IMG/VR virus record: IMGVR_UViG_3300018411_000017
Reading direction: 5' to 3' (one strand)
DNA: 64,000 nt
Source: a virus
Lineage: Duplodnaviria > Heunggongvirae > Uroviricota > Caudoviricetes
Shown here: positions 597-53,052 of the stretch, piece after piece
Layout: each line of letters begins with the position of its first letter
How positions within the stretch are numbered: position 1 is the first letter of the stretch
Made by a program: the position numbers and the translations under genes
The notes under the pieces: model-generated
The model's input: the letters and a program-made list of their open reading frames with translations, nothing else
The model's database searches: none
What the model was told of the DNA's origin: nothing

Positions 597-1151
597 TTAT
601 GATAATCTTCTTATCATTAAATTAAAAAAAGCTTCATTTGATGAAGCCTCTCGTGCTATATCTTTAATAACTTTTGAATTTCTACGTTTTCTTAGCTTTA
701 AAAAGTCCAACGGTATTCCGTGGTGATTAACAGAGCTTAAGAGATCTGCATTAGGCCCTATGTCGAATACAATTGATCCATTAGGTTTATCAGATACATA
801 AGATTCATCACTATAGACAACGTCATTGTCGCACAGGTTTTGCAAACAATCTATTAATTTGGCTATGGTTTGAAACTTTCGTTTTAATACGGAATGTCTC
901 TCTTCATTTAAAATTCTTAATTGTTTTTGCAATTCTATAATCATATTATCAGTTGGATCAATTTTATACATAGAATATATCAACCATCCTCCTTGACCAA
1001 GATTTAAAGATTCTCTTGTTCCTTTATCTATTGGTAATGAAAAATATCGCATAAATAAAGGATTTTTATATATAGCTATAACACATTCAGTTATATTGCC
1101 TTTAAAGAAAATAAAATCGTTTAGATTATATTCATTCTTTATTATTTTCAT
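597..1151 (-). CDS. hypothetical protein, paralog family A (1 of 3)
   Basis: 184 aa; N-terminus MKIIKNEYNLNDFIFFKG..IAIYK..FMRYFSLP is shared with the next two ORFs. Confidence 0.55.
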   Translation of the reverse strand: MKIIKNEYNLNDFIFFKGNITECVIAIYKNPLFMRYFSLPIDKGTRESLNLGQGGWLIYSMYKIDPTDNMIIELQKQLRILNEERHSVLKRKFQTIAKLIDCLQNLCDNDVVYSDESYVSDKPNGSIVFDIGPNADLLSSVNHHGIPLDFLKLRKRRNSKVIKDIAREASSNEAFFNLMIRRLS

Positions 1152-1707
1152 GATCTAATATTGTATTTAATAAATATTTAAAAACCGTAGAATCGCCTAA
1201 TGCTGTATATGCGAAATTTCTGATATATTCATTGTTCTTTATTCCCATAAAAGATTTTATTGGAATATCACCATGATTTATTTTTATAATAGATGGGCAA
1301 TAACGAGGACTATTTTCAGTAAATAAAGGTGAATCAATTTTCCCATTTGAAATATAGTCTCCGTATTTGAAAATAATATCTTTTGAAGAAAAATCGAACA
1401 ACACATCCACTAAAGAAACAAGCGCTTTAAACTCTGTATTCAACCTTGAATATGGCTCTGTTTCTATTAAACGAAGGCAAGATTTTAAAGCTGAAACCAT
1501 TTCGGGTATAGGTTTTATTTGGTCCATTCGATCTTGAACCCAATCCTTAGATCCAATTTGTAAATTGTCATATTTATTAGTCAATATTGGAAATGAAAAG
1601 AATTCCATAAAGATTTTCACTTTATATACAGCTATAATAGTCCCAGTTGATCTTCCTTTATAAAATAAAAAATCATTTACATCGTATTTACTTTTTAATA
1701 TTTTCAT
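1132..1707 (-). CDS. hypothetical protein, paralog family A (2 of 3)
   Basis: 191 aa; MKILKSKYDVNDFLFYKG..IIAVYK..FMEFFSFP. Confidence 0.55.
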   Translation of the reverse strand: MKILKSKYDVNDFLFYKGRSTGTIIAVYKVKIFMEFFSFPILTNKYDNLQIGSKDWVQDRMDQIKPIPEMVSALKSCLRLIETEPYSRLNTEFKALVSLVDVLFDFSSKDIIFKYGDYISNGKIDSPLFTENSPRYCPSIIKINHGDIPIKSFMGIKNNEYIRNFAYTALGDSTVFKYLLNTILDHENNKE

Positions 1708-2257
1708 AATTTATCATAGTCTCTAAAAGTGGGCTCATTAATCCTGGCTCTGAAAGAACATCAAATATAAGCTCTTGAGTATCTGCGCAGCTTTGAGATT
1801 CAACAAAAACCATGTCATTTGTTTGTTCTAAAAAGGCTTTAACTGAGCGATCTTCATATATATTCAAAGCAATATCAGAATCTATTTTATTGGTAATAAG
1901 GTATTTATGTGCATATGTTGTTTTGCTACATGCTAAATCACATAGAAAATCCATAAGCTTTACTAGGCTATTAAATTTTTCCACAAGTACAACATTAAGA
2001 GTTGTCTCCATTTTGTGTATTTGTCTCTTTAATTCGGATATCATTTCTTGATCTGGTTCAATGTCACTAAACCGATATATATCCCAGTCATTTCCGCCTA
2101 ATCTATCTTCCACTTCTTGCGTTATAGGCTTTTTTATAGGAAATGTAAACAAACCCAATCCAGCCATTGTACCATAGGTAGCAAGTATTCTTCCAGTTTC
2201 AATACTCCTACAAAAAAGAAAGTTGTCTAATTTATATTTAGATTTTAATATTTTCAT
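1688..2257 (-). CDS. hypothetical protein, paralog family A (3 of 3)
   Basis: 189 aa; MKILKSKYKLDNFLFCRS..ILATYG..FTFP. Confidence 0.55.
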   Translation of the reverse strand: MKILKSKYKLDNFLFCRSIETGRILATYGTMAGLGLFTFPIKKPITQEVEDRLGGNDWDIYRFSDIEPDQEMISELKRQIHKMETTLNVVLVEKFNSLVKLMDFLCDLACSKTTYAHKYLITNKIDSDIALNIYEDRSVKAFLEQTNDMVFVESQSCADTQELIFDVLSEPGLMSPLLETMINYENIKK

Positions 2258-2701: not shown

Positions 2702-3013
2702 TTATTTATTATAATGATACCAGTCCAAGGATGCTTGTAACCAGAATTCGTGACCTTCAGGAGTGTTATCCCAGTTAAAACATCTTGTAAGAAATCCTGA
2801 TTTCATTCTTTCATCAAAAAACGAACTAAAATTATTTATTTTATTTGTTTTCTCTTTTGAAAAATTGTAAATATATTTATCTAAAAGATTATGATCGATT
2901 AAAAATTCTTTAAACGAAATTGGCATAAAATCTTCTAAACTATTTTTTCCTTTTATTTTCATATTAACAACATTTAGCCAACTGATACCATTGATAGTCA
3001 TTCTCAATTGCAC
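2702..3013 (-). CDS. family B small protein (W..T.EG..YW motif), divergent member
   Basis: 103 aa; C-terminal FNWDNTPEGHEFWLQ matches the family B motif. Confidence 0.5.
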   Translation of the reverse strand: MQLRMTINGISWLNVVNMKIKGKNSLEDFMPISFKEFLIDHNLLDKYIYNFSKEKTNKINNFSSFFDERMKSGFLTRCFNWDNTPEGHEFWLQASLDWYHYNK

Positions 3014-3209
3014 ACCAAAAGGTAAAGCCTTCTTTTGAGAGAGAAAAAGAAAAGGAATTTATTGATGTGATTTTATGTCTAACGTTACCTTTTTCAAATT
3101 TAATTACATTATCTATAAATATATCTAATATATCCCATCCCTTTAAGAATGCTAGCAAATCAGAGTCTATTCTAGATATAACTAATTCTTTATTTTTAAT
3201 TATTTTCAT
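2964..3209 (-). CDS. family B small protein
   Basis: 81 aa; LAFLKGWDILDIFIDN ... FSLSKEGFTFWCAI. Confidence 0.55.
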   Translation of the reverse strand: MKIIKNKELVISRIDSDLLAFLKGWDILDIFIDNVIKFEKGNVRHKITSINSFSFSLSKEGFTFWCAIENDYQWYQLAKCC

Positions 3210-3475
3210 CTTTTTTCAATCCAAATATTAAAGTCATCATATATTTCACTCCAATAAGCATTTCCTTCTTTTGATTGTGTCCAAATAAATCCTTGGCGTG
3301 GTGTATGTACCGATTTGTTTTTATACTCTTTAAAAGATGTATAATTAACAAGATTATCGATAAAAATATCCAAGATTCCTTTCCAATTTAAAAACAATAT
3401 AAGATTGTCATCTAATTTATTTAGGGCTTCTTTGTCTAATCTAACTATTTTCATTAGTGCATTTCCATTTACCAT
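3206..3475 (-). CDS. family B small protein
   Basis: 89 aa; internal MKIVRL is the probable start; LFLNWKGILDIFIDN ... WTQSKEGNAYWSEI. Confidence 0.55.
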   Translation of the reverse strand: MVNGNALMKIVRLDKEALNKLDDNLILFLNWKGILDIFIDNLVNYTSFKEYKNKSVHTPRQGFIWTQSKEGNAYWSEIYDDFNIWIEKR

Positions 3476-3698
3476 ATTCTAAATCAATCTGGTCCCAATA
3501 TCTATAACCTTCTCTTGTTTCACTCCAAGTAAAAGCCTCAATTGGCCTAGATATACTTTTGTGTTTTGCTACAGAAAACACAGTATCACTAATAAAATTA
3601 TATATAAATATATCTAGTAATCCTTTCTCTTTCAAAAAAAGTATCAAATGATCTGATAACTTAGATAAGGCTTCTCCGTTTTGTTTTTTAATTTTCAT
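3441..3698 (-). CDS. family B small protein
   Basis: 85 aa; LFLKEKGLLDIFIYN ... FTWSETREGYRYWDQI. Confidence 0.55.
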   Translation of the reverse strand: MKIKKQNGEALSKLSDHLILFLKEKGLLDIFIYNFISDTVFSVAKHKSISRPIEAFTWSETREGYRYWDQIDLEYGKWKCTNENS

Positions 3699-3927
3699 TT
3701 TCTAAAACTTTTAGCCATTTACTCAATATTGCACACCAAAAATCAAAGTCTTCTTCTCTCCATGAAAAAGCTGCTGCTAATAAAACTTGAGGTGATGTTG
3801 TTTCAACATATTCTCTAAGGAATTCTTCATTTTTTTGATCAAACCCACCTTCTTCAAGAAATTTATTTAAACAATCTGTTTCAAATAAAAACTCTATAAA
3901 ACGATCGTAGATTTTATTTTTATCCAT
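3688..3927 (-). CDS. family B small protein (divergent)
   Basis: 79 aa; FLFETDCLNKFLEE ... FSWREEDFDFWCAI. Confidence 0.45.
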   Translation of the reverse strand: MDKNKIYDRFIEFLFETDCLNKFLEEGGFDQKNEEFLREYVETTSPQVLLAAAFSWREEDFDFWCAILSKWLKVLENEN

Positions 3928-4183
3928 GCTTTTCTTTAAGTTTTTGAATTATATAATTATCAAAATCAATCTGTATTTTTCTCCAATAAGAAGGTCCTTC
4001 TGGAGTATCCCTGAAGACAATAGTGCCTGCTATAGAATAAAATTTCATTCTTTCACTATAGCCCATAGCCTCTATATTTTTCACAAATTTATCTAAGCAA
4101 TTATTTTTCTGTAAAAACTCTAATAATATTGGCGATATTCTATTTACTATGCTTTTGTTTAATTTAACTATTTTCATATTCAT
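3920..4183 (-). CDS. family B small protein
   Basis: 87 aa; EFLQKNNCLDKFVKN ... FRDTPEGPSYWRKI. Confidence 0.55.
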   Translation of the reverse strand: MNMKIVKLNKSIVNRISPILLEFLQKNNCLDKFVKNIEAMGYSERMKFYSIAGTIVFRDTPEGPSYWRKIQIDFDNYIIQKLKEKHG

Positions 4184-4427
4184 TCCAATAATCTACCAAT
4201 TTATCATGCAACTCTCCCCAATAAATACCACCTTCGACAGTTTCGTCCCAAGTAAAAGAAAATAATATAGAATCTTCAATTCTATATTTAGAAATTACAG
4301 ATAATGGATCTTTATGTTGACTATTAATATTATTAAGGAATTTATGCAATGCATCATGTTCTATTAAAAAAGAAACCAAATTTTCGTTTAAATCCTCTTT
4401 TCGCAGAGTTCTTTTCCCTATTTTCAT
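4164..4427 (-). CDS. family B small protein
   Basis: 87 aa; SFLIEHDALHKFLNN ... FTWDETVEGGIYWGEL. Confidence 0.55.
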   Translation of the reverse strand: MKIGKRTLRKEDLNENLVSFLIEHDALHKFLNNINSQHKDPLSVISKYRIEDSILFSFTWDETVEGGIYWGELHDKLVDYWNEYENS

Positions 4428-4429
4428 AA

Positions 4430-4675
4430 TTAAAATTCTTTTTCTATTTTTTCTTGCATTTCAGACCAATAATGAAAGCCTTCAGGAGTAATGCTCCATG
4501 CAAAAGCAGTCCATAATATTACTTTTGGTTTATATTCTTTTATTTTAGATATAGGATCTTCATGAGAGTTATTGAAATTGTCTATAAAACTGTACAAAGC
4601 TCCATTCTTTCTTAAAAAAGAAGCAAATATGCAATCTAAATCTGATTCAGTTATTTTTCTTTTAGTTATTTTCAT
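4430..4675 (-). CDS. family B small protein
   Basis: 81 aa; SFLRKNGALYSFIDN ... FAWSITPEGFHYWSEM. Confidence 0.55.
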   Translation of the reverse strand: MKITKRKITESDLDCIFASFLRKNGALYSFIDNFNNSHEDPISKIKEYKPKVILWTAFAWSITPEGFHYWSEMQEKIEKEF

Positions 4676-4998
4676 AATAAATAAATTTAGTACCCCAAAT
4701 TGGATTCAAACCAATGTTTTAACCTTGAAGAGTTACGCCCTAGATCACTAGACGATTGGGGCTTATTAATAGTAGCAAGTATAAAATACACATAGGCCAA
4801 GTTAAAAGCGAAGACAAAGACCAGCTTCTAAACTAAGGCAAAGACAAAGTATTTTTTGTTTATTTTCTTAGAAGCTGTCGGTTTTTTGTTTGCTCATATA
4901 GCGTATATATTTTCGTCGCAAAACGCGTCGATCACGGTTTTGTATTTCATACTTGCTCAAAGTATAATATTAAATCTAATTTGATTTTAATTATACAC

Positions 4999-5960: not shown

Positions 5961-6758
5961 TTACTTTGTAATTCTTAGGAATTCAGGAACAACTCCATAT
6001 AACGGGGCAGACCCATTCCACTTGTCGATAAATTGCTTGTATAGAATTTCCTTTGTCAAACCTCGGCTTGCGATAATAGCTTGTTGGGTTTTAAGTTCTT
6101 CAAGCTCATTTCGTTTTCGCTGTTCAATAATCTGTTGTTCTAAAACTGTAACATTTGTATTAACCTCATTACGGTTGTCGATTTTAGCTTTTACTTTCTG
6201 ACTAAATTCTAACTGTGCTGAAAATGTTAACAATTCAAAGCCTCGTTTAGCAAACTCTTGCTTGACTATTGCTTCTAAACGTTTTTCAAATAATAAAGAA
6301 CCTTGGTTTGCCATAAGTGTATCTGTTGAATACTTTCGGCTTTCCTCTTTCATTAAATCATAAATTCTTGGTTCTAGTATATTATCTTCTACTGCGTCAA
6401 GAAAATCATCGCCTATGCCTATATGTTTATTATCGAATATAACATCAATAGGCTTATCCGGCATAACTTTATAAGAATAAACTGGACGAGCAGAAAACTC
6501 TGTATTATCAGCCGCTTTTAGAGTATCAGGATTATCAAACTCTCCACGTTGCTCGAACGCTGGAACTTGATATAGCTCAGTACCCCAAGCCATCACATTG
6601 ACTTTACCGGTTACAATACGAAAATCGCTTTTACCTGCCTTACCATAATTTGTCATTAAGACCCCATAATGGTTCAGTTCAACTCTTTCACAACTCTGGA
6701 AAATAAAAGTGAGCATTAGCAAACTAATTGCTAAAAAGCTCTTAAAGAAATTTTTCAT
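5961..6758 (-). CDS. putative lipoprotein with SPFH/band-7 (prohibitin-like) domain
   Basis: Signal peptide plus lipobox (..IFQSC); HYGVLMTNYGK..GTELYQVP resembles the SPFH N-terminal motif; C-terminal coiled coil (EQQIIEQRKRNELEELK). Confidence 0.45.
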   Translation of the reverse strand: MKNFFKSFLAISLLMLTFIFQSCERVELNHYGVLMTNYGKAGKSDFRIVTGKVNVMAWGTELYQVPAFEQRGEFDNPDTLKAADNTEFSARPVYSYKVMPDKPIDVIFDNKHIGIGDDFLDAVEDNILEPRIYDLMKEESRKYSTDTLMANQGSLLFEKRLEAIVKQEFAKRGFELLTFSAQLEFSQKVKAKIDNRNEVNTNVTVLEQQIIEQRKRNELEELKTQQAIIASRGLTKEILYKQFIDKWNGSAPLYGVVPEFLRITK

Positions 6759-7714: not shown

Positions 7715-8067
7715 AATTCTTTATTTTTAATATAATTATTTATTTTTTCTTTCAGATTTTCAAGATCATTTGTATAATCTTTTAGATATACTATCTCAAT
7801 ACGAGATCCTTTAATTGAGCTTTCGCCTATTTGTTCGGTATAATATTTTATATTATTAATTCTTTTAGCAGACAATCTAAACCCGGCAACTGAGGAGACA
7901 ACTTGATCTTTTAATGATTTCTCCATACGCTCATGGGTTGAGTGAGCAAACACGCATCTCACATCTTTAAGTATTCTCATTAAAATCTCAACTTCTGTTC
8001 CGTTTTGTACGGCAATAACAACATCATGATCAAGATTAAAATGTTCAATTTGTTTTGTTATCTTCAT
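7711..8067 (-). CDS. hypothetical protein
   Basis: 118-aa ORF starting MKI. Confidence 0.5.
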   Translation of the reverse strand: MKITKQIEHFNLDHDVVIAVQNGTEVEILMRILKDVRCVFAHSTHERMEKSLKDQVVSSVAGFRLSAKRINNIKYYTEQIGESSIKGSRIEIVYLKDYTNDLENLKEKINNYIKNKEL

Positions 8068-8254
8068 TTGTTATTTCTTTAGCGTATTTCCATTTTTCAG
8101 TTGTTTCACTCCATGCGGCTTCTTCAAATGTTTCCGCTCCATGCCAAGCTTCATATCCACCCGTTATTTCCTGAATAACAACTCTTTTAAAGCCCTTATT
8201 TTCCGATGTTATTTCTTGATTAGAAACCATCATAATTTTTGGATATTCATTCAT
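8045..8254 (-). CDS. hypothetical protein
   Basis: 69-aa ORF. Confidence 0.4.
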   Translation of the reverse strand: MNEYPKIMMVSNQEITSENKGFKRVVIQEITGGYEAWHGAETFEEAAWSETTEKWKYAKEITNEDNKTN

Positions 8255-8282
8255 AATGTTTAAGTTTTTTAGTTAATAGTAG

Positions 8283-8351
8283 TTCCCCTTATAGGATTCA
8301 AACCTATGAAATAAACATTTGTTTATTGTTTTATCTCTAAACTAAAGAGGA
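8283..8351 (-). ncRNA. tRNA-like element with miniaturised anticodon arm
   Basis: Minus-strand fold: acceptor TCCTCTT/AAGGGGA, D-arm GTTT-AGAGATA-AAAC, T-arm ATAGG-TTTGAAT-CCTAT, but only a 4-bp/4-nt hairpin (AAAC-AAAT-GTTT) where the anticodon arm should be. Confidence 0.45.
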
Positions 8352-8647
8352 TTCCGATTTCTTTAAACATAAATTAGCATTCTATGCAAGCGCATTTTAC
8401 GTTTTGGATGAAATCAATCCAGCAAATTAAGTTAGATTAACCGTATTCTGGTCATGTAACTTATCTTAGGCTATTTGCAAGCCTATGTAGATAACCAAGT
8501 CTACCGCTTGCCTATTGATCAGATAGGTTTTTTCAAAGCACATGATAAGACAATATATAATCTTATAATCGGCTTTTAGAGATATGTCATCAACGTACGC
8601 GCTATTCATTTATTGTCCGTTTTTGTTTGCATATCTCTATTCTTTAT

Positions 8648-9061
8648 TTAAATTTCATATTTAAAATATACGAAATTATCACTTTGTTTAATTATCTTAA
8701 AGTCATTTTTTAAATGCCAATTAATAGATGGAGTATTTGATACTTCTGCTATACTATATAAATCCATTGGAAAATTCATTATAAAACTTTTAAATAACAT
8801 TGTCGCCAACCCTATCCGTTTTATATTAGAACTCAAGTCACATAGCATATATGAATTTGGTTTTAACCAATCTAAATAATCGTCCAATTCTGGTTCTTCA
8901 AATTTTATAGTATAAATTAATTTAACTTCAAATTTGCTTCGTGGTGCGTGAATACCTAGATTAAGATGGCTTTTAATTGCTGAATAACATTTAAAAGTTT
9001 CATCATTTATATCAAAACAAAAATCAAATGTTTCATTACTGTTTTTATCAAAGCATTTCAT
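8648..9061 (-). CDS. hypothetical protein (weak GNAT-like RxxGxA motif)
   Basis: 137 aa; KRIGLATMLF resembles GNAT motif A, but this is weak. Confidence 0.4.
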   Translation of the reverse strand: MKCFDKNSNETFDFCFDINDETFKCYSAIKSHLNLGIHAPRSKFEVKLIYTIKFEEPELDDYLDWLKPNSYMLCDLSSNIKRIGLATMLFKSFIMNFPMDLYSIAEVSNTPSINWHLKNDFKIIKQSDNFVYFKYEI

Positions 9062-9065
9062 GATA

Positions 9066-9485
9066 TTATGGTTTTACAAATAAAACTCCATGTTTTGCAT
9101 TGTCTCTAAATCTAACCAATCTAACAAATCCCCTAAGTATTACCAAGCAAGGAATTTCTCTTTTTTGTTTTTTTGATTTAGACCAAAAAAAAGCGGATTG
9201 ACCTACTCCGTTAGTGATTGATTCAAAACAATATCCAGATAACGGAAGCTTTAGGCATTTATTTTCATCATTTAAATCTATTAAATTATTTGCAAAATAA
9301 CAGTATTCATTTTTAATAACATATGGGGATTTGCTTAATAATTCAAGTTCTGATTCAGTTGGCAATCTTTTAATTCCTGTATTCTCCATGAGCATAGCAT
9401 CCTTATAAAAATATAAATCTTTTCCAACATCTTTATAGAAATCAATGCCAGCTATATTTATTATATAACAATATCCTATTTTCAT
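9066..9485 (-). CDS. family C: FISUMP-like domain protein (no signal peptide)
   Basis: GIKRLPTESELELL ; LKLPLSGYCF ; AFFWSKS ; C-terminal VRLVRF. Confidence 0.55.
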   Translation of the reverse strand: MKIGYCYIINIAGIDFYKDVGKDLYFYKDAMLMENTGIKRLPTESELELLSKSPYVIKNEYCYFANNLIDLNDENKCLKLPLSGYCFESITNGVGQSAFFWSKSKKQKREIPCLVILRGFVRLVRFRDNAKHGVLFVKP

Positions 9486-9901
9486 AACTTATTCATTAAT
9501 AGAAAAGACAATTCAACGTCATAAGCTGCTGCCTGTACTCTTAATTCACGTTTATTTGAAAACGTAAAACATTTATCTCCATCCCCAAATCTATAAAATC
9601 CAGTATCATCGTGAACAATTGAGCTGGCTAACCATCTAAACCCCGTTGGAGGTAGTATTAATCTTTGGCTTGGTATATCAAGATTTTCTAAAGATTCAGC
9701 TATAAGTAAATGATTCTCGCTTATTTTGTGAGGTAATTTCAACAAAGCATTAAAAGCTTCTTCTGTTAATAATTGCATATTATGAGACTTTGCCATCTCT
9801 AAAGTTTCTTCGTAAGAAGATAATCTAAATGCTGTTTTATGGATAAAGAATCCTCCTAATTTAATTGAATTTGGATTTGGATTTTTAGCTTCTATTTTCA
9901 T
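9482..9901 (-). CDS. family C: FISUMP-like domain protein (divergent)
   Basis: QLLTEEAFNALLKL ; LILPPTGFRW. Confidence 0.45.
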   Translation of the reverse strand: MKIEAKNPNPNSIKLGGFFIHKTAFRLSSYEETLEMAKSHNMQLLTEEAFNALLKLPHKISENHLLIAESLENLDIPSQRLILPPTGFRWLASSIVHDDTGFYRFGDGDKCFTFSNKRELRVQAAAYDVELSFLLMNKL

Positions 9902-10332
9902 GGCGTTTTTAATAATATAGGTTGTCCATAAGATGAATCCGAATAAAATATTCTAATTCTATTATCTTTATTAAAACATAAATATGGCTGATTCTCCGTT
10001 GGATTTGGATTAGTGTTTTGTAACCAATAATAGCCGCCTATGTTTTTTCCAATAAATCGTTTTTGATTCAAATGATTATTATAATATCCCAATCTAGGGA
10101 ATTCAATCCTTCTATTTTCATCATCTAACCAAATACCTTGTTCTGCTATATAAAGACTAGTTGAGTCGTGTTTCCTTGGAAGAGTTAAAAGCAGTTCCAT
10201 TTCATGTTTACTAATCAATACTTTTCCAACAGACTCGGCGTACTCAATAGCTTGCTTATAGTTGAAATAGCCATTAATGGGTTTTTGATCAAACTTAATC
10301 CCTTTTATCTCAAATTGTTTTCTTATTTTCAT
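9898..10332 (-). CDS. family C: FISUMP-like domain protein
   Basis: EFPRLGYYNNH ; GGYYWLQN. Confidence 0.5.
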   Translation of the reverse strand: MKIRKQFEIKGIKFDQKPINGYFNYKQAIEYAESVGKVLISKHEMELLLTLPRKHDSTSLYIAEQGIWLDDENRRIEFPRLGYYNNHLNQKRFIGKNIGGYYWLQNTNPNPTENQPYLCFNKDNRIRIFYSDSSYGQPILLKTP

Positions 10333-10346
10333 AATTATTGTTGGTT

Positions 10347-10793
10347 TTATAAATCTGAAACAAAACGAACTGTAAATTTATATTCGCGAAAATACCTATC
10401 TACACCAGGGATTGAATCGCTATCAAAATATAGATGAGTTGCATTGTCTTCTGATAAAGAAGAATCAGCCCAATATATTCCAATGTCATAAACGCCATAA
10501 TTAGGCGTAATACTTTTGGGAGGGCAATACCCGCCAGAAGGTAAAAACAATGAATAGTTTGTTTTTAAATCTCTAACATCATTTGCATACCAAATTCCAC
10601 GATTATCTTTATCATATAAATAATGTAATTTATTAAGATTGCGAAATTCTTCTGGAGTTGGCAGTCTCTTATTTCTTATATAAGCTTGATGCATCGCATC
10701 TTTATGAGTGAAATGAGCTATATCTCCATCTTTAAAATTAGATATATCCCATTTCAATCCATTTAATATAACATAATCACCTCCTATCTTCAT
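10347..10793 (-). CDS. family C: FISUMP-like domain protein
   Basis: ILNGLKWDISNF ; KRLPTPEEFRNL ; SLFLPSGGY ; IYWADSS ; C-terminal FTVRFVSDL. Confidence 0.6.
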   Translation of the reverse strand: MKIGGDYVILNGLKWDISNFKDGDIAHFTHKDAMHQAYIRNKRLPTPEEFRNLNKLHYLYDKDNRGIWYANDVRDLKTNYSLFLPSGGYCPPKSITPNYGVYDIGIYWADSSLSEDNATHLYFDSDSIPGVDRYFREYKFTVRFVSDL

Positions 10794-11053
10794 AATCTAT
10801 AATAATTGTTTTCACTTTTATAAAAGAAGAATGTAGGATTCCCTTTAATTTGACATATCTGCAACCATTCCGTTTGGAATAAAGTGTAAGAATAAGCCAC
10901 AGACACATATGTATTGTCAGTTATATCATATAAAAAAACTTCTTTACTAGGAATATTTACCATTAGAAACATTACCTCATGTTTTTCTATGGTTTCCTGT
11001 TTTACGCAACTAGTTAATAAAACAAGTAATAATAATATGACTAAATGTTTCAT
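10790..11053 (-). CDS. small lipoprotein
   Basis: 87 aa; signal peptide with lipobox LLTSC. Confidence 0.45.
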   Translation of the reverse strand: MKHLVILLLLVLLTSCVKQETIEKHEVMFLMVNIPSKEVFLYDITDNTYVSVAYSYTLFQTEWLQICQIKGNPTFFFYKSENNYYRL

Positions 11054-11065
11054 GTTTTTAATATT

Positions 11066-11482
11066 TTAATAAATTGATTTTATTATAAAATTACGATCGT
11101 TACCTTTTGGTATAAGTTTATTTAACTTTTCTTTATCTTCTATATCACAAACGCTTGTTTGGCTTCTTTTAAGATTGTTAATAGATGAATTAATTTCTAA
11201 AACTATTCTGCTTTCATTATCATCATATACAGATCTATATATATTTAATAGCAAATAATCCGAATTGGAAATAGAAAAAGGTTTATTTACTATTTCTAAC
11301 AACGCAACTTTATAAGTTCCATATGGAATATCTAATCTATGAAAATATTGGAATAAACAACCTGCGCTATATGGATCATGAGCAATTCCGAATTCAGGTT
11401 TGCAAAACTTAATTCTTAACATTTTAAAATGGTCATAATATATATAAGCTTTTATGCAATTATTTGAATTTATTATTTTCAT
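11066..11482 (-). CDS. hypothetical protein, family G (1 of 2)
   Basis: 138 aa; KAYIYYDHFKMLRIKFCKPE resembles the N-terminus of the neighbouring ORF. Confidence 0.5.
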   Translation of the reverse strand: MKIINSNNCIKAYIYYDHFKMLRIKFCKPEFGIAHDPYSAGCLFQYFHRLDIPYGTYKVALLEIVNKPFSISNSDYLLLNIYRSVYDDNESRIVLEINSSINNLKRSQTSVCDIEDKEKLNKLIPKGNDRNFIIKSIY

Positions 11483-11880
11483 AAAACAATTTTAAATCTA
11501 TAATATTTTCCTGTCTTAAATCCGAATTCATCGTATATATCAAAATAAGTAGTCCAATTAGAAAATAGAGAAAAAGCATTTCTGGCTTGAAATTTTATCC
11601 GATTAAGAGATGCACTAAAAATAGATATCATAAATTCCGTTTCTATAAGAAATGTCAAATCGTCCATTTCAATTAACAATACCTCTCTACATTCTCCTGG
11701 CAAAATTTGAGGGAAAAAGTAATTATCAATACTCTGATATGGACCGTTATAACAATGGTATACTATTTGACCTTCGCCAACCGATCTACATTCCGGTTTA
11801 TAATAAGATATACTTAGATTATTATTTGAATTTCTATATAAATACATCTTTAACCCATTACCTTTTGATGATATTTTCAT
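11479..11880 (-). CDS. hypothetical protein, family G (2 of 2)
   Basis: 133 aa; KMYLYRNSNNNLSISYYKPE. Confidence 0.5.
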   Translation of the reverse strand: MKISSKGNGLKMYLYRNSNNNLSISYYKPECRSVGEGQIVYHCYNGPYQSIDNYFFPQILPGECREVLLIEMDDLTFLIETEFMISIFSASLNRIKFQARNAFSLFSNWTTYFDIYDEFGFKTGKYYRFKIVL

Positions 11881-12317
11881 AACTTTATTAATTTTAAAGA
11901 CAATTGATATTCCATATTAAAGGATGGAGCAGAATCGGCATGAATAAATCCGTTTGATAACATAATAAAGCAACATTTTCCTTCTTCTTTTTCTTTTGCC
12001 CAATAAAATCCACTTCCTAATGCTATTGGAGGCCTATTTTGTTGCCTATAACCTTGTATTGTGTTAAACCTCAAACATTTGTTAGGATCAGATAAATATT
12101 CTTTTTTTGGAGATAGATGACACCATCCATCTTCATATATTCTTTGCAGCTTAATAAGACCTGAAAAATCCTCCTTATCTGGTATTCTGGCATCAAATCT
12201 TTCGGCTAGAAATAAAGCTTCTTCATAAAGCATATGAGGACATCCTTTTAATGTAATGTCTTCTTTAATCCAAAAAAAACCATTTATTTCAATTGTCTCA
12301 ACTTTTTTTATTTTCAT
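11877..12317 (-). CDS. family C: FISUMP-like domain protein
   Basis: INGFFWIKEDI ; ARIPDKEDFSGL ; GFYWAKE ; C-terminal LSLKLIKL. Confidence 0.55.
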   Translation of the reverse strand: MKIKKVETIEINGFFWIKEDITLKGCPHMLYEEALFLAERFDARIPDKEDFSGLIKLQRIYEDGWCHLSPKKEYLSDPNKCLRFNTIQGYRQQNRPPIALGSGFYWAKEKEEGKCCFIMLSNGFIHADSAPSFNMEYQLSLKLIKL

Positions 12318-12757
12318 AATTTAATTAGCTTTAAACTAAATAAAAAATCCTGTACTCGAATATTTGATGGTGATTGGACTTTGGATTCATTGAAAAATAA
12401 ATAAGATCCATATTCATTTTCTATATCATCCAAATCGCACCAATAACAGGCTGTTGTTGCATTACTATCATCCGATTTTACATATATCCATCCATTAAAT
12501 TTAAATCTTAAAACATTGAATCCTTTTTTGAGTTCCTCATTTGTTTCAGCAAAAATCCATTCGCTTGTTTCTGGAATAAATTTATGAGATAATTTTAATA
12601 GTTTTTTATAATCGTCTGAATTCGGAATTCTTGCTTTATACTTTTTAGCCAAATGTAAAGCTTCTATATTAGAAACATTAACTCGCCCTTCAAATGATAT
12701 GTCTTCTTTAATCCACGTAATACCATTTAAGGTTATACAACTTTGTCCTATTTTCAT
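12314..12757 (-). CDS. family C: FISUMP-like domain protein
   Basis: LNGITWIKEDI ; ARIPNSDDYKKL ; CYWCD ; C-terminal FSLKLIKL. Confidence 0.55.
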   Translation of the reverse strand: MKIGQSCITLNGITWIKEDISFEGRVNVSNIEALHLAKKYKARIPNSDDYKKLLKLSHKFIPETSEWIFAETNEELKKGFNVLRFKFNGWIYVKSDDSNATTACYWCDLDDIENEYGSYLFFNESKVQSPSNIRVQDFLFSLKLIKL

Positions 12758-13973: not shown

Positions 13974-14228
13974 TTAATTATAGTCAATTATACGAACCCA
14001 GAGATAAAAAGGCTTATCAAAGCTGATATGTTCTCCATATTCGTTAACCGTCCCAGGCGCATAGTGAGCGTGTCCAAAGTCCACTTCTATAGTGTAATAA
14101 TCAATTTCATAATATCCTTTTTTATATCCAACAATTGGATAAAATTTGCCATTAAACTCGAATTTAATTGAGTCTCCTATTTTATATTTAAAATAATCAT
14201 CGATTCTTTTTTTTTTCAGTATTTTCAT
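13974..14228 (-). CDS. family E small protein (1 of 2)
   Basis: 84 aa; MKILKKKRIDDYFKYKIGD...IVGYKKGYY, paralog of 23562..23813. Confidence 0.5.
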   Translation of the reverse strand: MKILKKKRIDDYFKYKIGDSIKFEFNGKFYPIVGYKKGYYEIDYYTIEVDFGHAHYAPGTVNEYGEHISFDKPFYLWVRIIDYN

Positions 14229-14514
14229 CAGTTAGTATTTCAAAATGCACACATTTTCCATCAGATCTTTCTAAACAACTACATTGGCCTCTAACTTCTT
14301 TTATTTTTTCTATAGTACAATTGTATAATATGTTATTTATTTTAAAATAGCATTTATCACAAGATAAACCAGGAGATTCTAAACAAATAAATGGAAGCCC
14401 ATCATAAGTAAAAACTTCTCCTATTTCTCTTTCTTCTTTGAACATTTTTAATATTTTCATATCATATTTTTTCAACAAAACATACAAACATGAAATCTTC
14501 TCTTCCACCGGCAT
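14197..14514 (-). CDS. family D Cys-rich mini-protein
   Basis: Internal MKILKMFKEEREIGEVF is the probable start; Cys pattern C..C..C..C. Confidence 0.5.
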   Translation of the reverse strand: MPVEEKISCLYVLLKKYDMKILKMFKEEREIGEVFTYDGLPFICLESPGLSCDKCYFKINNILYNCTIEKIKEVRGQCSCLERSDGKCVHFEILTDENTEKKKNR

Positions 14515-14689
14515 AGCATGATCCAGTTATATCTTCATCTCTATTTCCACAGTCTAAACTATAAGATGTATTAAAAATGCACATTTCACATGATGAGGAA
14601 TCCGCTTGAACACATTCCAATAATTTTCCTTTATGATAAAAAGTCTCTCCGATTTTTCTTTCCTGAACTTTTTTTTGTTCTATTTTCAT
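14462..14689 (-). CDS. family D Cys-rich mini-protein
   Basis: 75 aa; IGETFYHKGKLLECV...CEMCIF...C...GSC...FMFV. Confidence 0.55.
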   Translation of the reverse strand: MKIEQKKVQERKIGETFYHKGKLLECVQADSSSCEMCIFNTSYSLDCGNRDEDITGSCYAGGREDFMFVCFVEKI

Positions 14690-14910
14690 AATATTTTTTT
14701 ATATATTATATAGCACTTATCGTCTCTAAAAGTTTCACTGCAAGAGTGAAAAAAAGGAAGCCAAGGCTTTGCACAACTAGCACGCATAGACCCTTCATTT
14801 CTTTGAAAGCAACATCCATTACATCTATTTTCTTTCGATGCTCTATCTAATACTCCATATCTATCGCCTTGAAATCTTATTACTTCTTTATATTTAGGAA
14901 GTATTTTCAT
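14686..14910 (-). CDS. family D Cys-rich mini-protein
   Basis: 74 aa; Cys-rich (CNGCCF..C..C). Confidence 0.5.
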   Translation of the reverse strand: MKILPKYKEVIRFQGDRYGVLDRASKENRCNGCCFQRNEGSMRASCAKPWLPFFHSCSETFRDDKCYIIYKKIL

Positions 14911-15146
14911 TCTGTTACTTCTTTAAAAATAACATTCTCTTTATCTCCTCTGGAAGTCCCAACGCAAGAACCTAATACTTTTCTTCCTGGTTTAAGACAC
15001 ACTATGCCTTTACTATAAAAACAACACCCAGAGCATACATAAGTATTAGGATTGTACTTTTGACATGTATATTTTTTTCCGCGATATTCAATGGTATCTC
15101 CTATTCTAATATAATAATCTTCTAAAGGTATTTTTTCTATTTTCAT
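14907..15146 (-). CDS. family D Cys-rich mini-protein
   Basis: 79 aa; IGDTIEYRGKKYTC...CSGCCF..C...GSC...VIF. Confidence 0.55.
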   Translation of the reverse strand: MKIEKIPLEDYYIRIGDTIEYRGKKYTCQKYNPNTYVCSGCCFYSKGIVCLKPGRKVLGSCVGTSRGDKENVIFKEVTE

Positions 15147-15367
15147 TATCTTACTTTTTTAAAAATAACTCCTGTTAAATCATATCTACTTATATTAGAG
15201 CAATATCCAGTTATATGTTTAATATTATTGCAATTTATTTCCATATCAGAGAAGTAACAGTCGATACAGCTATACGCTTCTTCGACACATTCTAATTGGG
15301 TCCCATCTTCTAATGTAAACCTATCTCCAATAGAATGCTTGTCTTTATTTATTTTAGATATTTTCAT
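15146..15367 (-). CDS. family D Cys-rich mini-protein
   Basis: 73 aa; IGDRFTLEDGTQLECV..CIDCYF..C...GYC...VIF. Confidence 0.55.
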   Translation of the reverse strand: MKISKINKDKHSIGDRFTLEDGTQLECVEEAYSCIDCYFSDMEINCNNIKHITGYCSNISRYDLTGVIFKKVR

Positions 15368-15560: not shown

Positions 15561-15675
15561 AATATTTTGTTTTAGATAAAATAAATAAAGAGTGATACAT
15601 TGTGTACCACTCTTTTCACATATTAGTCTTCACAGATTTGTATGCGACTAAACTTATAAAATATGAAAAATATAG

Positions 15676-15747
15676 TACCGCGTAGAGGAGTCAAACCTCT
15701 TTTCTGCATTTGAGAGATGCAAGTCCTAATCGGTAGACGAACGCGGC
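15676..15747 (-). tRNA. tRNA, anticodon CTC (Glu-type), non-canonical D/T loops
   Basis: Manual fold on minus strand: acceptor GCCGCGT/ACGCGGT (6 WC pairs plus G-U); D-stem GTCT/GGAC with D-loop ACCGATTA (no GG); anticodon stem TGCAT/ATGCA with loop CTCTCAA; 4-nt variable loop; T-arm AGAGG-TTTGACT-CCTCT (U in place of C56). Confidence 0.55.
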
Positions 15748-19529: not shown

Positions 19530-19555
19530 AAGTGTTTATTTTATAAATTATTAAG

Positions 19556-19627
19556 TACTCAAACCAGGAGTTGAACCTGGGCTTCATGGATATAAGCCGT
19601 GCGTGCTAACCGTTACACCATTTGAGC
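19556..19627 (-). tRNA. tRNA, anticodon TAT (Ile-type, AUA decoder)
   Basis: Manual fold on minus strand: acceptor GCTCAAA/TTTGAGT; D-arm GTGT-AACGGTTA-GCAC; anticodon stem CACGG/CCATG (one C-A mismatch) with loop CTTATAT (U33, A37); 4-nt variable loop; T-arm CCAGG-TTCAACT-CCTGG. Confidence 0.55.
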
Positions 19628-22648: not shown

Positions 22649-22873
22649 TCATTTTTGTTTAAGTTCAACAAATATAATATCTTGTTTATCCGATCGACTC
22701 TCCCGGCCACATGGCCCAGTGAAATTATTTGGGCACTCATCCATATTTTGATCTGTAAAAATACATTTTTCACAACTGTAATTTTCTGATTCTACAGAAA
22801 CACATTGCAGCATCTTTAACCCAAAAGCAAACACCTCTCCAATGTTATATTCTGTTTTCTGTTTTATTTTCAT
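22649..22873 (-). CDS. family D Cys-rich mini-protein
   Basis: 74 aa; IGEVFAFGLKMLQCV..CEKCIF..C...GPC...IIFV. Confidence 0.55.
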   Translation of the reverse strand: MKIKQKTEYNIGEVFAFGLKMLQCVSVESENYSCEKCIFTDQNMDECPNNFTGPCGRESRSDKQDIIFVELKQK

Positions 22874-22880
22874 ATTATTT

Positions 22881-23099
22881 TTACTCTTCTGATTTCACAA
22901 AAATAACATCAGTTTTATCATCTCTTTTCCGCTTACCACATAATCCAATAACTTCCGTATATTTTTCATGGCAATTAATATCACAAAAAAAACAACCAAC
23001 ACAAAAATTCTCTTTTTCACTAGTAACGCATTTTAATCTTATTAGTCCAAACTGAAATGTTTCTCCAATTTGAAACTGATTTTTCTTATTTATCTTCAT
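22881..23099 (-). CDS. family D Cys-rich mini-protein
   Basis: 72 aa; IGETFQFGLIRLKCV..CVGCFFC..C...GLC...VIFV. Confidence 0.55.
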   Translation of the reverse strand: MKINKKNQFQIGETFQFGLIRLKCVTSEKENFCVGCFFCDINCHEKYTEVIGLCGKRKRDDKTDVIFVKSEE

Positions 23100-23561: not shown

Positions 23562-23813
23562 TTATTTTTTATAATATTTTGCTGAAACGAACCAACAATT
23601 AAATTTACTACAATCAATCGGATCGCCATATTCATCTATAGATCCCTCGCCATTATGCCCTCGAGTAGGAATTTGGATGCAATAATAAAGCCCATAACCA
23701 GATTTCGTGTGATATCCTATAATACAACAACGATCTCCATCATGATAAATATAATCTCCGATCTTATATTTAAAATCACCATCTATACGCTTTCTTTTAC
23801 CTATTATTTTCAT
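23562..23813 (-). CDS. family E small protein (2 of 2)
   Basis: 83 aa; MKIIGKRKRIDGDFKYKIGDYIY...IIGYHTKSGY. Confidence 0.5.
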   Translation of the reverse strand: MKIIGKRKRIDGDFKYKIGDYIYHDGDRCCIIGYHTKSGYGLYYCIQIPTRGHNGEGSIDEYGDPIDCSKFNCWFVSAKYYKK

Positions 23814-51234: not shown

Positions 51235-52128
51235 ATGAATGAATTTAAAGATTGGGACGTAAAGATTGATGATCAGATAGACTTTTTTGACCCTAGTCTA
51301 TCTTATGAATTAACTGGGTATAGACCAATAACAGAAACGGAAGGATTAGACTTTGACCCTTCATGGTTTATGGAGGTTGTTGATTATAAAAATAAAAAAG
51401 GAGTACATTGTCCTAACCCTCCTGGCTCTTATGCTTTTAAAAACTTTTGGCTTGGAGAATATGATAAATGCAAAAATGGCTATAGCGTTAACGGTTATAG
51501 GATAACAGGCCATCATTATTTCTTTTTAAACTTTTATAAGCTTCTTAATGCGAATAATGTTGGCAAAGCAGGTTCTGGCCGTGAATATAGCAATCCTAAT
51601 TTTTGGGCTAAACACTATGAGTATTTTCATTATTTAGAAATGTGCGAATTGTTAGAAAAAGATGCTTGCGCTCTGAAAAGTCGTGGAGTCGGTTTTTCGG
51701 AGATTGGAGCTAGCATAGGGGCCTGCACATACTCAGTTGTGCAAAACTCAAAAACAATGTATATTGCCTCTGCTGAGAATTACTTATTGAAAAATGGTGT
51801 ATTACAGAAAGTATGGGATTGCCTTGAAACTCTTAACCAAGAAACAGAAGGAGGCTTAAGGCATTTGACGCAAAAGAAAAAAGAGCCAATGTGGAGAAGA
51901 GCTTCTGTGCTAGATAAACAAGGTCAGGAGTCTGGATGGATGTCTGAGGTATTTGGACAGGTTGTAGACAATTCAAGAAAATTAAGAGGTGTTCGTTTGG
52001 AATATTTACTATTCGAAGAATCAGGTTCTTTTAATGGATTAGTCACTGTGTATAATAAATCTGAAGCGCTAGTAAATTTGCTTGGGAAAAAGATCGGAAC
52101 AAGAATACTCTGGGGAACCGGTGAATAA
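51235..52128 (+). CDS. terL: terminase large subunit, N-terminal ATPase segment (upstream part of split gene)
   Basis: Walker-A-like KSRGVGFSEIGAS and Walker-B-like LEYLLFEESGS; ends with a stop just before the 1.1 kb insert. Confidence 0.6.
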   Translation: MNEFKDWDVKIDDQIDFFDPSLSYELTGYRPITETEGLDFDPSWFMEVVDYKNKKGVHCPNPPGSYAFKNFWLGEYDKCKNGYSVNGYRITGHHYFFLNFYKLLNANNVGKAGSGREYSNPNFWAKHYEYFHYLEMCELLEKDACALKSRGVGFSEIGASIGACTYSVVQNSKTMYIASAENYLLKNGVLQKVWDCLETLNQETEGGLRHLTQKKKEPMWRRASVLDKQGQESGWMSEVFGQVVDNSRKLRGVRLEYLLFEESGSFNGLVTVYNKSEALVNLLGKKIGTRILWGTGE

Positions 52129-52169
52129 CATTTTCTCCACCTGTTTGTTTTTTTTTATAATATTTTTTG

Positions 52170-52177
52170 TATATTTG
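52170..52177 (+). promoter_or_regulatory. Bacteroidetes-type -7 promoter element (TATATTTG) for the homing endonuclease
   Basis: 15 bp upstream of the ATG at 52192. Confidence 0.4.
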
Positions 52178-52191
52178 CATCTTAATATTAA

Positions 52192-53052
52192 ATGCGTAAT
52201 AAAATGGAAAATGTACAAAAACTGGAGATGGCTTTAATTGCGGCTGAAGAATATATAAATTCTAAAAAAGGAAGCATTAGTCTTACTCAATTGCAAAACA
52301 AATATGGTGTTAGAAGACAAGTTATTTCTAAAATTTTAAAAAATAAAGGAATTGAAGTTATAAATTATCAAAATCTGTCAAGAATAAATGAAAATATTTT
52401 TGACAATATTGATACAGAAGAAAAAGCCTATTGGCTTGGATTCATATATGCGGATGGATGTATATCCAATAATGGATATCGCTTTGAAGTTAGGTTGTCA
52501 AAAAAAGATGAAGATCATTTAATGAAATTGACTAGTTTTTTTAATGATGAAGGCAATTATAGATATGCAGAATCAAATGGGCATCAAGCTGTTCATTATT
52601 CTGTAAGAAATAAGCATTTGTGGGAAACATTAAATAATTATGGATGTACCCCAAGAAAGTCATTAACTGTCGTATTCCCTGATGAATCTATATTCTCAAG
52701 AAAAGAATTTATAAAAGACTTTATTCGAGGATATTGCGATGGGGATGGTTCATTAGGTGTTTATTTAGTTAAAAATAAAAATAGGATGCTAGAGCATTTA
52801 AGCTTTTGTGGTTCTGAAATGTTTTTAAACAAAATGGATGAATATCTTCCACGTCATTCTTCTGTATATGAAAAGAAAGACAATAAAATACATGTGATAA
52901 AATATTCAGCTTTTAAGGCAAGACTAAACGCTAGATTTATATACGAAAATTCCAATATTTACATGAATAGGAAATATAATGTTTTTGAAAATTTTTGCCG
53001 TCTTGAATTGGAAAATTCAAGATTACGACAGAGCAAAAACGGTGAAAGCTGA
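52192..53052 (+). CDS. LAGLIDADG homing endonuclease (double-motif) with N-terminal HTH
   Basis: KAYWLGFIYADGCIS (motif 1) and FIRGYCDGDGSLG (motif 2). Confidence 0.8.
   Translation: MRNKMENVQKLEMALIAAEEYINSKKGSISLTQLQNKYGVRRQVISKILKNKGIEVINYQNLSRINENIFDNIDTEEKAYWLGFIYADGCISNNGYRFEVRLSKKDEDHLMKLTSFFNDEGNYRYAESNGHQAVHYSVRNKHLWETLNNYGCTPRKSLTVVFPDESIFSRKEFIKDFIRGYCDGDGSLGVYLVKNKNRMLEHLSFCGSEMFLNKMDEYLPRHSSVYEKKDNKIHVIKYSAFKARLNARFIYENSNIYMNRKYNVFENFCRLELENSRLRQSKNGES

Follow-up and report, generated by a model that had tools for sequence, protein, structure and literature searches.

Eight tandem paralogs of a small domain common among phages form an array of variable copy number in a tailed phage

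Introduction

Why does a tailed phage carry eight versions of one small gene side by side, and what do their products do? Tandem multigene families in the accessory regions of phages are an already known phenomenon. The run considered here lies at positions 2702-4675 of the window, by which we mean the whole 64,000-nucleotide stretch of DNA that was analysed, taken from a Caudoviricetes genome with a G+C content of ~28% (IMG/VR record IMGVR_UViG_3300018411_000017). It sits within a block of ~32 kb made up of small genes on the same strand, to which no function is assigned, and a tRNA-like gene is found directly upstream, 15 nt from the first copy. A sequence-only reading had described eight tandem, overlapping minus-strand genes for a novel family of small proteins with an N-terminal MKI signature and an invariant C-terminal motif, F.W..T.EG..YW, hyper-diversified in the early region of the phage.

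Results

Exactly eight back-to-back minus-strand paralogs, each encoding 79-87 aa, fill this interval, labelled here from A (first) to H (last):

Copy A, 4430..4675, minus strand: 81 aa, MKITKRK...AFAWSITPEGFHYW...; first array gene; family HMM E 6.6e-27; phrog_16354 E 3e-7.
Copy B, 4164..4427, minus strand: 87 aa; HMM E 5.1e-25; 2-nt gap from A; orthologs in every relative.
Copy C, 3920..4177, minus strand: 85 aa, start MKIVKL, alternative ATG at 4183; HMM E 2.9e-24.
Copy D, 3688..3927, minus strand: 79 aa; HMM E 3.5e-20; 8-nt overlap with C.
Copy E, 3441..3698, minus strand: 85 aa; HMM E 1.4e-25; 11-nt overlap with D.
Copy F, 3206..3454, minus strand: 82 aa, start MKIVRL, longer reading from 3475; HMM E 7.6e-24; 14-nt overlap with E.
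Copy G, 2964..3209, minus strand: 81 aa; HMM E 8.5e-22; ATGA overlap with F; orthologs in every relative.
Copy H, 2702..2962, minus strand: 86 aa, start MKIKGK at 2962; last array gene; HMM E 1.4e-23.

The description as eight tandem, overlapping minus-strand genes holds, with overlaps at five of the seven junctions (B/C by 14 nt, C/D by 8, D/E by 11, E/F by 14 and F/G by 4, ATGA) and gaps of 2 nt at A/B and 1 nt at G/H, but the product range of 79-103 aa given originally is corrected here to 79-87 aa. These lengths use the MKI or MD starts that align across the copies and occur in orthologs; upstream extensions would give readings of 103 aa (copy H, GTG at 3013), 89 aa and 87 aa (MNMKIV, start 4183), and a database protein (P0011) is the exact 86-aa form of copy H. 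Misassigned frames had been raised as a concern, and the frames are correct: gene callers report the same ORFs in independent assemblies, the copies have orthologs in related contigs, and dN/dS is below 1 wherever it is computable. The array probably constitutes one operon, in which the stop/start overlaps would provide translational coupling. Programmed frameshifting at the overlapping junctions was rejected, as nothing supports it and termination-reinitiation coupling is the ordinary reading of such junctions. The assignment to an early region had been derived from gene layout only, and scans for sigma-70-type and Bacteroidetes-type -33/-7 promoter motifs lend it no backing, showing no enrichment above chance level.

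A family HMM run on the 64-kb window returned only these eight copies (E 3.5e-20 to 6.6e-27) and no further one, a result that is partly by construction given that the seed alignment included the eight copies. Independent support for kinship comes from pairwise local alignments with the first three residues removed, in which all weak pairs tested scored above 300 shuffles (z 4.7-11.8; for copy D, which diverges most and is also the most acidic at pI 4.3, z 4.7-7.7 against the others), and from matches of five of the eight copies to PHROGs of unknown function at E<1e-3. Aromatic or hydrophobic residues dominate the conserved positions (F20, L21, L27, F30, N33, F58, W60, E65, G66, Y69, W70), and only F20, L21, L27, the glutamate and the final tryptophan are invariant in all eight copies. 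The C-terminal motif is thus a consensus: copy D lacks T.EG and reads FSWREEDFDFW, and the first tryptophan is replaced by phenylalanine in copies C and G, the variant in G being FSFSLSKEGFTFW. Nor does MKI mark the family, since it is a trait of the whole block, where 27 of the 67 non-array minus-strand genes begin with MKI and 43 of the 67 with MK. The copies differ from one another at the remaining positions, in a central segment (~residues 34-55) and in net charge (pI 4.3-9.6), and the positions that vary between orthologs coincide with those that vary between paralogs (Spearman rho 0.61, p 1e-9). This correlation and the range of pI point to a conserved scaffold with a variable remainder; the core and a T.EG helix cap would be built from the conserved residues, with the variable ones placed on the surface.

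Close relatives of the ~158-kb phage carry 5-8 copies each, those with conserved flanks holding 8, 6, 6, 7, 6 and 5. Copies A, B, D, E and G occur in every close relative (copy A at 83-94% identity in L006-L011) and copies C, F and H are variable: C is confined to the window lineage and L006/L007, F is missing from L006 and L011, and H is missing from four relatives, with a 51%-identical allele in its place in L009. Copy E is shortened to 67 aa in L008 and L009. Paralog identity among the eight copies is 26-44%, several orthologs were compared per copy (only two distinct ones for E), and these comparisons indicate that the copies are old duplicates, each comparable copy with its own orthologs. 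On substitution counts that are small (1-56 per gene), dN/dS in the array was 0.12-0.86 in comparisons with synonymous differences (0.54-0.72 for B, 0.12-0.22 for D), against 0.01-0.12 in flanking genes (0.01-0.03 for Band_7, 0.05-0.12 for a 296-aa neighbour and 0.04-0.08 for a 113-aa neighbour); no computable comparison gave a sign of positive selection. Retained copies are under relaxed purifying selection while others are gained, lost, truncated or replaced. Faster evolution than the flanks and variable copy number agree with the diversification claimed earlier, but "hyper-diversification" is misleading for such old copies with dN/dS in this range. Amplification recurs, since L005, an unrelated large phage, has its own tandem array of 5-7 copies. 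LoVEphage-type Bacteroides phages have only the Band_7 gene in common with the window.

An AF2 model of copy A (pLDDT 89.2) predicts an all-alpha five-helix bundle of ~70 aa with a long C-terminal helix and a topology that may be likened to SAM (sterile alpha motif) domains, for example those of tankyrase, Eph receptors and polyhomeotic. No SAM family appeared in a Pfam-A hmmscan of the eight copies (E up to 1) or among 103 relatives, and the G-h-G hairpin of HhH and (HhH)2 DNA-binding modules is absent from the copies. A natural two-module relative is modelled as a rigid unit (pLDDT 89.7, pTM 0.74), helix 5 of module 1 running nearly straight into helix 1 of module 2. Fold searches gave no confident match: the best matches in BFVD are uncharacterised proteins from crAss-like, Siphoviridae and Microviridae entries, and the sole annotated one, "putative antirestriction protein", came at E 5.5 and TM 0.19. 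Neither by sequence nor by fold did the PDB yield a match to any known anti-defence protein. No membrane segment is predicted in the array proteins, and this lack of a hydrophobic stretch rules out a secreted or membrane protein; a DNA mimic or uniformly acidic anti-restriction protein was ruled out by the pI range of 4.3-9.6.

That the family is not a described domain was borne out by fold and sequence searches alike. HMM scans of the eight copies gave no significant match in Pfam, NCBIfam or PADLOC (one copy reached E 0.023 against one PADLOC model, which is not significant, and the others were unmatched there), profile searches of PDB sequences with two family alignments returned chance hits only (E 0.4 or worse), and no enzyme or defence family matched the array proteins. 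Novelty is another matter: the family matches five PHROGs of unknown function (phrog_16354, phrog_25460, phrog_10949, phrog_20568 and phrog_38635), and the metagenomic search that the sequence-only reading had proposed finds it to be common, the family profile matching 4,414 metagenome protein clusters at 50% identity. PHROG matches were obtained for copies A, B, E, F and H at E 3e-7 to 7.5e-4 and for D only at 0.034; C and G did not match phrog_16354, phrog_25460 or phrog_10949, and multi-repeat relatives reached E 3.5e-39. What these PHROG families have in common with the array copies is the C-terminal F.W..T.EG..[YF]W helix-cap motif; the matches are mostly limited to the C-terminal 20-45 residues, and no function, structure, tandem-array or repeat architecture is described for them.

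The module occurs as a single gene, as a tandem gene array, and repeated 2-6 times, possibly up to 9, within one polypeptide; 121 of the 144 top-scoring relatives hold 2-6 modules per chain, a count biased by summed scores that favour multi-module proteins. Tailed phages of ~48-180 kb carry it, and a single copy is present in 5.8-kb gut Microviridae. Searches of GenBank phages by tblastn with copy A and two relatives (P0121, P0143) found only two Microviridae and the unannotated record of a 735-kb uncultured phage (25% identity, E 2e-4), so the module is possibly present in a megaphage. No family member came out of an exact-motif scan of 185,579 species genomes, a DNA pattern for F.W..TPEG..YW had no match in GTDB genomes and three marginal ones in IMG/VR, and none of 21 GTDB matches to a shorter DNA pattern was a family member by HMM. 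Word-indexed homolog searches returned near-orthologs with few exceptions, their only label being "hypothetical protein" with no function named; a cluster look-up likewise supplied no names for the matching clusters, and the literature, searched by PHROG id, by motif and by concept, offered nothing relevant. All contexts examined were phage or phage-like contigs. Replication and nucleotide-metabolism genes surround the family in other phages: the gene for P0121, which has five modules, is flanked by primase and DNA polymerase A, the L005 array by DHFR on one side and RtcB/ThyA on the other, and further neighbours include RtcB, CCA-adding enzyme, RNA ligase and dCMP deaminase. A Pfam scan of the 103 relatives (20 individually, 83 as an alignment) returned nothing but two fusion partners, the dATP/dGTP diphosphohydrolase N-domain dGTP_diPhyd_N and DUF6378; any Pfam domain was seen in only 2 of the 83 longer relatives.

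Discussion

Taken together, the comparisons indicate that all eight genes are genuine and arose by ancient duplication, as paralogs of a small, widespread domain that is predicted to be all-alpha. That they are an artefact or functionless, decaying duplicates, whether wrongly assigned frames or neutral junk ORFs as may arise in an AT-rich genome, is exceedingly improbable. At ~28% G+C spurious long ORFs are easily found, the MKI start is genome-wide, and relatives have lost or truncated some of the copies, but this reading is already refuted by the multiple orthologs per copy (if only two distinct ones for E), the dN/dS below 1, the 4,414 matching clusters and the confident AF2 model, and independent gene callers give the same ORFs.

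We favour, at a probability of about 0.4, the reading that the array is a birth-and-death family whose products are non-enzymatic binding modules directed at host factors. Each copy would bind its own macromolecular partner, most likely a host protein hit early in infection so as to take over the cell, counter its defences or exclude competitors, and the array would persist as a multigene family under birth-and-death evolution because the targets differ between hosts or strains. The birth-and-death pattern itself follows from the 5-8 copies in relatives, the truncation of E in two and the replacement of H in one. The function would be autonomous and not tied to the machinery of tailed phages, as suggested by the single copy in Microviridae, the BFVD matches, the match in the 735-kb phage and the empty scan of 185,579 genomes. 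A host-directed role is what we infer for the modules, and the replication and nucleotide-metabolism neighbours and the two fusions fit a phage-internal role equally well.

One such role is that of a co-assembling scaffold, in which the eight products would pack head to tail into a hetero-oligomeric rod, as an unfused counterpart to the multi-repeat proteins, in a phage-internal process such as the organisation of replication or nucleotide-metabolism enzymes. The multi-repeat chains, common in the biased top-scoring sample, and the near-continuity of helix 5 and helix 1 in the rigid two-module model would fit module co-assembly better than eight independent targets, the settings of P0121 and the L005 array and the fusions with dGTP_diPhyd_N and DUF6378 point the same way, and the overlapping stop/start junctions would permit equimolar synthesis if translation is coupled. 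A fixed stoichiometry is hard to fit to 5-8 copies among close relatives with E truncated in two, however, single-copy Microviridae keep the module without these enzymes, and Pfam domains are rare in the longer relatives; we regard this explanation as unlikely, if a serious one. Binding of a small ligand or nucleic acid seems to us improbable. Here the near-invariant W60, E65 and W70, two tryptophans and a glutamate, would line an aromatic-plus-acid pocket for a nucleobase, nucleotide signal or RNA, as in a sponge or tRNA-related factor, and both fusions, the RtcB, CCA-adding enzyme, RNA ligase and dCMP deaminase neighbours and the tRNA-like gene upstream of the array would agree with it. The same residue pattern equally fits core packing plus a helix cap, though, D is without T.EG and C and G without the first tryptophan, the pI range argues against a common nucleic-acid ligand, the HhH hairpin is absent, and such neighbours are typical for any gene in the non-structural region of a large phage.

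The array resembles some known groups of viral genes. The MGF360, MGF505 and MGF110 families of African swine fever virus and the "genomic accordions" of poxviruses are tandem viral multigene families that expand and contract. Like the array, they consist of tandem paralogs of one small fold with strain-variable copy number, evolve faster than their neighbours and are found in the non-structural region of the genome of a large dsDNA virus, but they belong to eukaryotic viruses and their folds are unrelated to the array module; moreover, their link to host range or immune evasion has been shown experimentally, whereas the array is known from its genes alone. Large phages also carry blocks of small early host-takeover genes, such as SPO1 gp37-60 and the early genes of T4 or T5, and anti-defence gene islands. 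With these the block around the array shares dense same-strand small ORFs, a large lytic-type phage and presence or absence between strains. They consist mostly of unrelated genes, whereas the array is one domain amplified eightfold, and unlike the early blocks of SPO1, T4 and T5 its domain is also found as intra-protein repeats and in ssDNA Microviridae.

A broader and quite speculative extension, which we think has a small chance of being right, is that this domain superfamily, confined to phages as far as sampling shows, serves as modular banks of decoys or inhibitors, each module neutralising a different target of host immunity or takeover. The repertoire would be scaled by tandem gene duplication (eight copies here, 5-7 in L005) or by stringing modules in one polypeptide, and copy-number differences between strains would then directly record the host defences met.

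The array module is very common in phages yet without a curated description, and the array in this large phage of gut type is a well-supported candidate for experimental work. The domain is compact and confidently foldable, its consensus is clear, it comes in three architectures, and close relatives provide a natural series of presence and absence, all of which renders it tractable for the definition of a new domain family and for pull-down and anti-defence work in Bacteroidota-type phage-host systems. Should the modules be a structural scaffold only, they would amount to a routine new domain with no function assigned; should they be target-specific inhibitors, such arrays would supply host-interaction specificities as a ready-made catalogue.

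A tight array of eight related genes

Eight back-to-back minus-strand genes at 2702-4675, as proposed by the sequence-only reading, were borne out by the ORF list and a family HMM. They are labelled A to H in transcription order.

Array genes in the ORF list
4430-4675, minus, copy A
4164-4427, minus, copy B
3920-4177, minus, copy C
3688-3927, minus, copy D
3441-3698, minus, copy E
3206-3454, minus, copy F
2964-3209, minus, copy G
2702-2962, minus, copy H

As read from the sequence, A/B and G/H are separated by 2 nt and 1 nt, B/C, C/D, D/E and E/F overlap by 14, 8, 11 and 14 nt, F/G meet in an ATGA, and 4 nt separate copy H from the next gene. With aligned starts the proteins measure 79-87 aa, which keeps the lower end of the 79-103 aa originally proposed and lowers the upper one, and the database protein P0011 is copy H in exactly the 86-aa form. 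An artefactual or junk origin of the array is excluded, and A-H count as real coding genes.

The family HMM, seeded with the eight copies and 16 distant relatives, recovered exactly A-H across the 64-kb window (E 3.5e-20 to 6.6e-27, partly by construction as the copies are in the seed) and no further copy. Support independent of this HMM comes from shuffle tests with the first three residues removed, which gave z of 4.7-11.8 for the six weakest pairs, and from the five copies that match PHROGs of unknown function at E<1e-3 (phrogs 16354, 25460 and 10949; weaker matches to phrog_20568 and phrog_38635), mainly on the C-terminal motif. The consensus of A-H is MKI.K...L...L..FL.....LDKFI.N...(variable)...F.W..T.EG..YW. 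Its C-terminal motif, first taken as invariant, is a consensus only, from which copies C (IVFRDTPEGPSYW), D (FSWREEDFDFW) and G (FSFSLSKEGFTFW) deviate; F20, L21, L27, E and the last W are invariant in the alignment. Nor is the MKI start a family feature: among the 67 non-array minus-strand genes of window 1-32600, 27 (40%) start with MKI and 43 (64%) with MK, from which we infer a start-region preference of the genome (codons ATGAAAAT...) that looks genome-wide. Such a preference can look like an N-terminal family motif. Downstream of the paralog blocks, an ORF of 113 aa (244-585, minus) weakly matches the family profile, only in the profile's N-terminal half (positions 12-51, E 0.0017), and could be either a chance hit or a strongly diverged family member.

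Genomic surroundings and tRNA genes

The window has a G+C content of 27-36% and lies within the 158,426-bp metagenomic contig that carries P0011. A near-continuous series of small minus-strand genes runs from 1 to ~32,000; on the plus-strand half lie genes for a tail-fibre-like protein of 2,155 aa, an exonuclease, GroEL, a split large terminase and a portal. DNA similarity to GenBank phages was confined to the Band_7 gene (5961-6758), which is 67% identical to 'LoVEphage'-type phages of Bacteroides/Phocaeicola. No Shine-Dalgarno-like sequence was present in the start regions read, which presumably fits a Bacteroidota host, and promoter scans stayed at chance level. Other tandem paralog families share the minus-strand block with the array, which is one among several expanded families of this phage.

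Other features of the window
597-2257, minus, three ~188-aa genes sharing MKILKSKY..NDFLF
8648-12757, minus, about ten consecutive genes of 133-148 aa, LNG..W motif in several of them (and again at 17242, 18074, 20626 and 23106)
13974-15367, 22649-23099 and 23562-23813, minus, several 72-84-aa genes sharing MKI.K....IGD/E.F
4691-4762, minus, tRNA gene, 15 nt upstream of copy A
15675-15747, minus, tRNA Glu-CTC, inside the small-gene block
19555-19627, minus, tRNA Ile-TAT, inside the small-gene block
51235-52128, plus, large terminase, matching the N-terminal half of phrog_6681
52192-53052, within 51235-54444 (plus), endonuclease ORF (phrog_4645) between the terminase halves
53236-54444, plus, large terminase, matching the C-terminal half of phrog_6681

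The terminase appears to have been split by insertion of an intron or homing endonuclease. ARAGORN by default finds two tRNAs and misses that next to the array, which scores 44.4 bits with Rfam RF00005 (gathering threshold 29), has a 6-nt anticodon loop (CUUCAA) and is called 'tRNA-?(Glu|SeC)(tc)' under relaxed settings. In the related contigs L006 and L009 this tRNA is 73 nt long, its anticodon loop being larger by one base (52 and 47 bits); a C-to-T change in the anticodon region of L009 turns UUC into UUU or, shifted one base, UCA into UUA, and in the latter case the tRNA would be of suppressor type. In four other relatives the gene is split at the anticodon region by an insertion of ~810 bp (L008 and L010, 2556-3364; L011, 4899-5705; L012, 1114-1920), which holds an ORF of 235-238 aa that weakly matches HNH. 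A scan at Rfam's gathering threshold found no group I intron in the insertion, which may represent an intron or may simply disrupt the gene. Between the insertion and copy A, L008 and L010 have in addition an IS605 OrfB/TnpB-type gene of 379 aa.

Turnover of the array

Related contigs keep the flanks (Band_7, a 296-aa gene, and 147-, 189-, 191-, 184- and 113-aa genes), and despite this their array content differs.

Array content (dash, copy missing)
Window: ABCDEFGH
L006: ABCDE-G-
L008 and L010: AB-DEFG-
L009: AB-DEFGH' (H' only 51% identical to H)
L011: AB-DE-G-

L008 and L009 have a shortened copy E of 67 aa. Nei-Gojobori dN/dS, rough because substitution counts per gene are small, was 0.12-0.86 for the array genes overall (A and B ~0.5-0.7 in most comparisons; E and G 0.24-0.86; C, D and F ~0.1-0.3), 0.01-0.03 for Band_7, 0.05-0.12 and 0.04-0.08 for the 296- and 113-aa genes, 0.10-0.39 for the three ~188-aa paralogs and 0.28-0.38 for the 147-aa gene. 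Positions that vary among orthologs coincide with those that vary among paralogs (rho 0.61), a pattern in which a scaffold is conserved and the remainder varies. Since the paralogs are only 26-44% identical (E/F the closest, 44%), the duplications are far older than the strain divergence, and the suspected hyper-diversification is not a recent runaway duplication. The array is, as judged by these comparisons, an old family in birth-and-death evolution.

A tandem array arose independently in L005, a contig (~84-180 kb depending on assembly) of a large phage unrelated to that of the window. There, 5-7 family members occupy 7983-10673 between DHFR and RtcB/ThyA, with a 222-aa membrane-protein-like ORF in the middle. 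Gene junctions are conserved in this array too. The ORF and six members end in W-stop, five cases showing (I/V)W-stop and at least two an overlap with the next ATG (ATATGGTAG type), and the junction sequence appears to have been duplicated together with the gene.

A widespread phage module

An exhaustive profile search retrieved 4,414 clusters (50% identity) at E<=1e-3 and 155 at E<=1e-10. The 144 best relatives contain one (23), two (76), three (25), four (17), five (2) or six (1) modules, a distribution skewed to multi-module proteins because module scores sum; a looser scan gave up to nine matches in P0148 (964 aa). The module thus occurs as solo gene, as tandem gene array and as repeats within one polypeptide. 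Solo copies lie in the 5.8-kb gut Microviridae MG945453 (5015-5275) and MG945509, and a 735-kb uncultured phage gave a weak tblastn match. The contexts retrieved were all phage-like, with P0121 flanked by primase and DNA polymerase A, P0143 close to dCMP deaminase, thioredoxin and RtcB, and P0123 and P0148 amid numerous small ORFs. An exact DNA pattern for W..TPEG..YW, present in about a quarter of the members collected here, matched 21 times in 185,579 species genomes, and because the HMM confirmed none as a member, cellular genomes and prophages appear, by the single motif variant scanned, to have few or no members of the family.

Pfam, NCBIfam, PADLOC and PDB sequence searches of the family gave no match, and to that extent its supposed novelty holds; five PHROGs of unknown function already match it and are its closest catalogued entities. 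Word-indexed homolog searches gave no relative a functional name, and literature searches found nothing relevant. A Pfam domain occurs in two of the 83 relatives of >=200 aa: P0213 has a dATP/dGTP diphosphohydrolase N-terminal domain (dGTP_diPhyd_N, PF18909) before two modules, and P0229 has four modules before DUF6378 (PF19905). The module is confidently predicted to fold as one small helical domain. Among known folds it would come closest to SAM, although the sequences gave no SAM profile match, and in BFVD its best fold matches were to uncharacterised proteins from crAss-like phages, Siphoviridae and Microviridae. The eight proteins have pI values of 4.3-9.6, no enzyme signature and no predicted membrane segment (maximal Kyte-Doolittle over 19 residues <=1.45).

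Possible roles of the array

The tight packing with overlapping junctions, the copy turnover between strains, the conserved core positions versus divergent remaining positions and charge, and the presence of the module in unrelated phages, ssDNA ones included, suggest that A-H may be non-enzymatic binding modules, each with a different partner, a tentative reading to which we assign a probability of roughly 0.4. Given how little machinery Microviridae have in common with tailed phages, host components would be likelier partners than phage ones. The copies in Microviridae, like the variable copy number, speak against the main rival, in which the modules would co-assemble into a scaffold serving some process internal to the phage. 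In favour of such a scaffold, which we consider unlikely overall, are the fusion of several modules in relatives, the rigid model of a two-module protein, and the location of relatives near genes for replication and nucleotide metabolism. The two NTP-pyrophosphohydrolase-type fusions hint at a candidate pocket for a ligand or RNA, made up of W60, E65 and W70, a quite improbable alternative to partner-specific binding modules.

Viral multigene families that grow and shrink, such as African swine fever virus MGFs and poxvirus accordions, would be the closest analogues of the array in behaviour, together with small early-gene blocks in large phages. We conclude that the array represents an undescribed domain family, abundant, clean and tractable, with an already known evolutionary behaviour.
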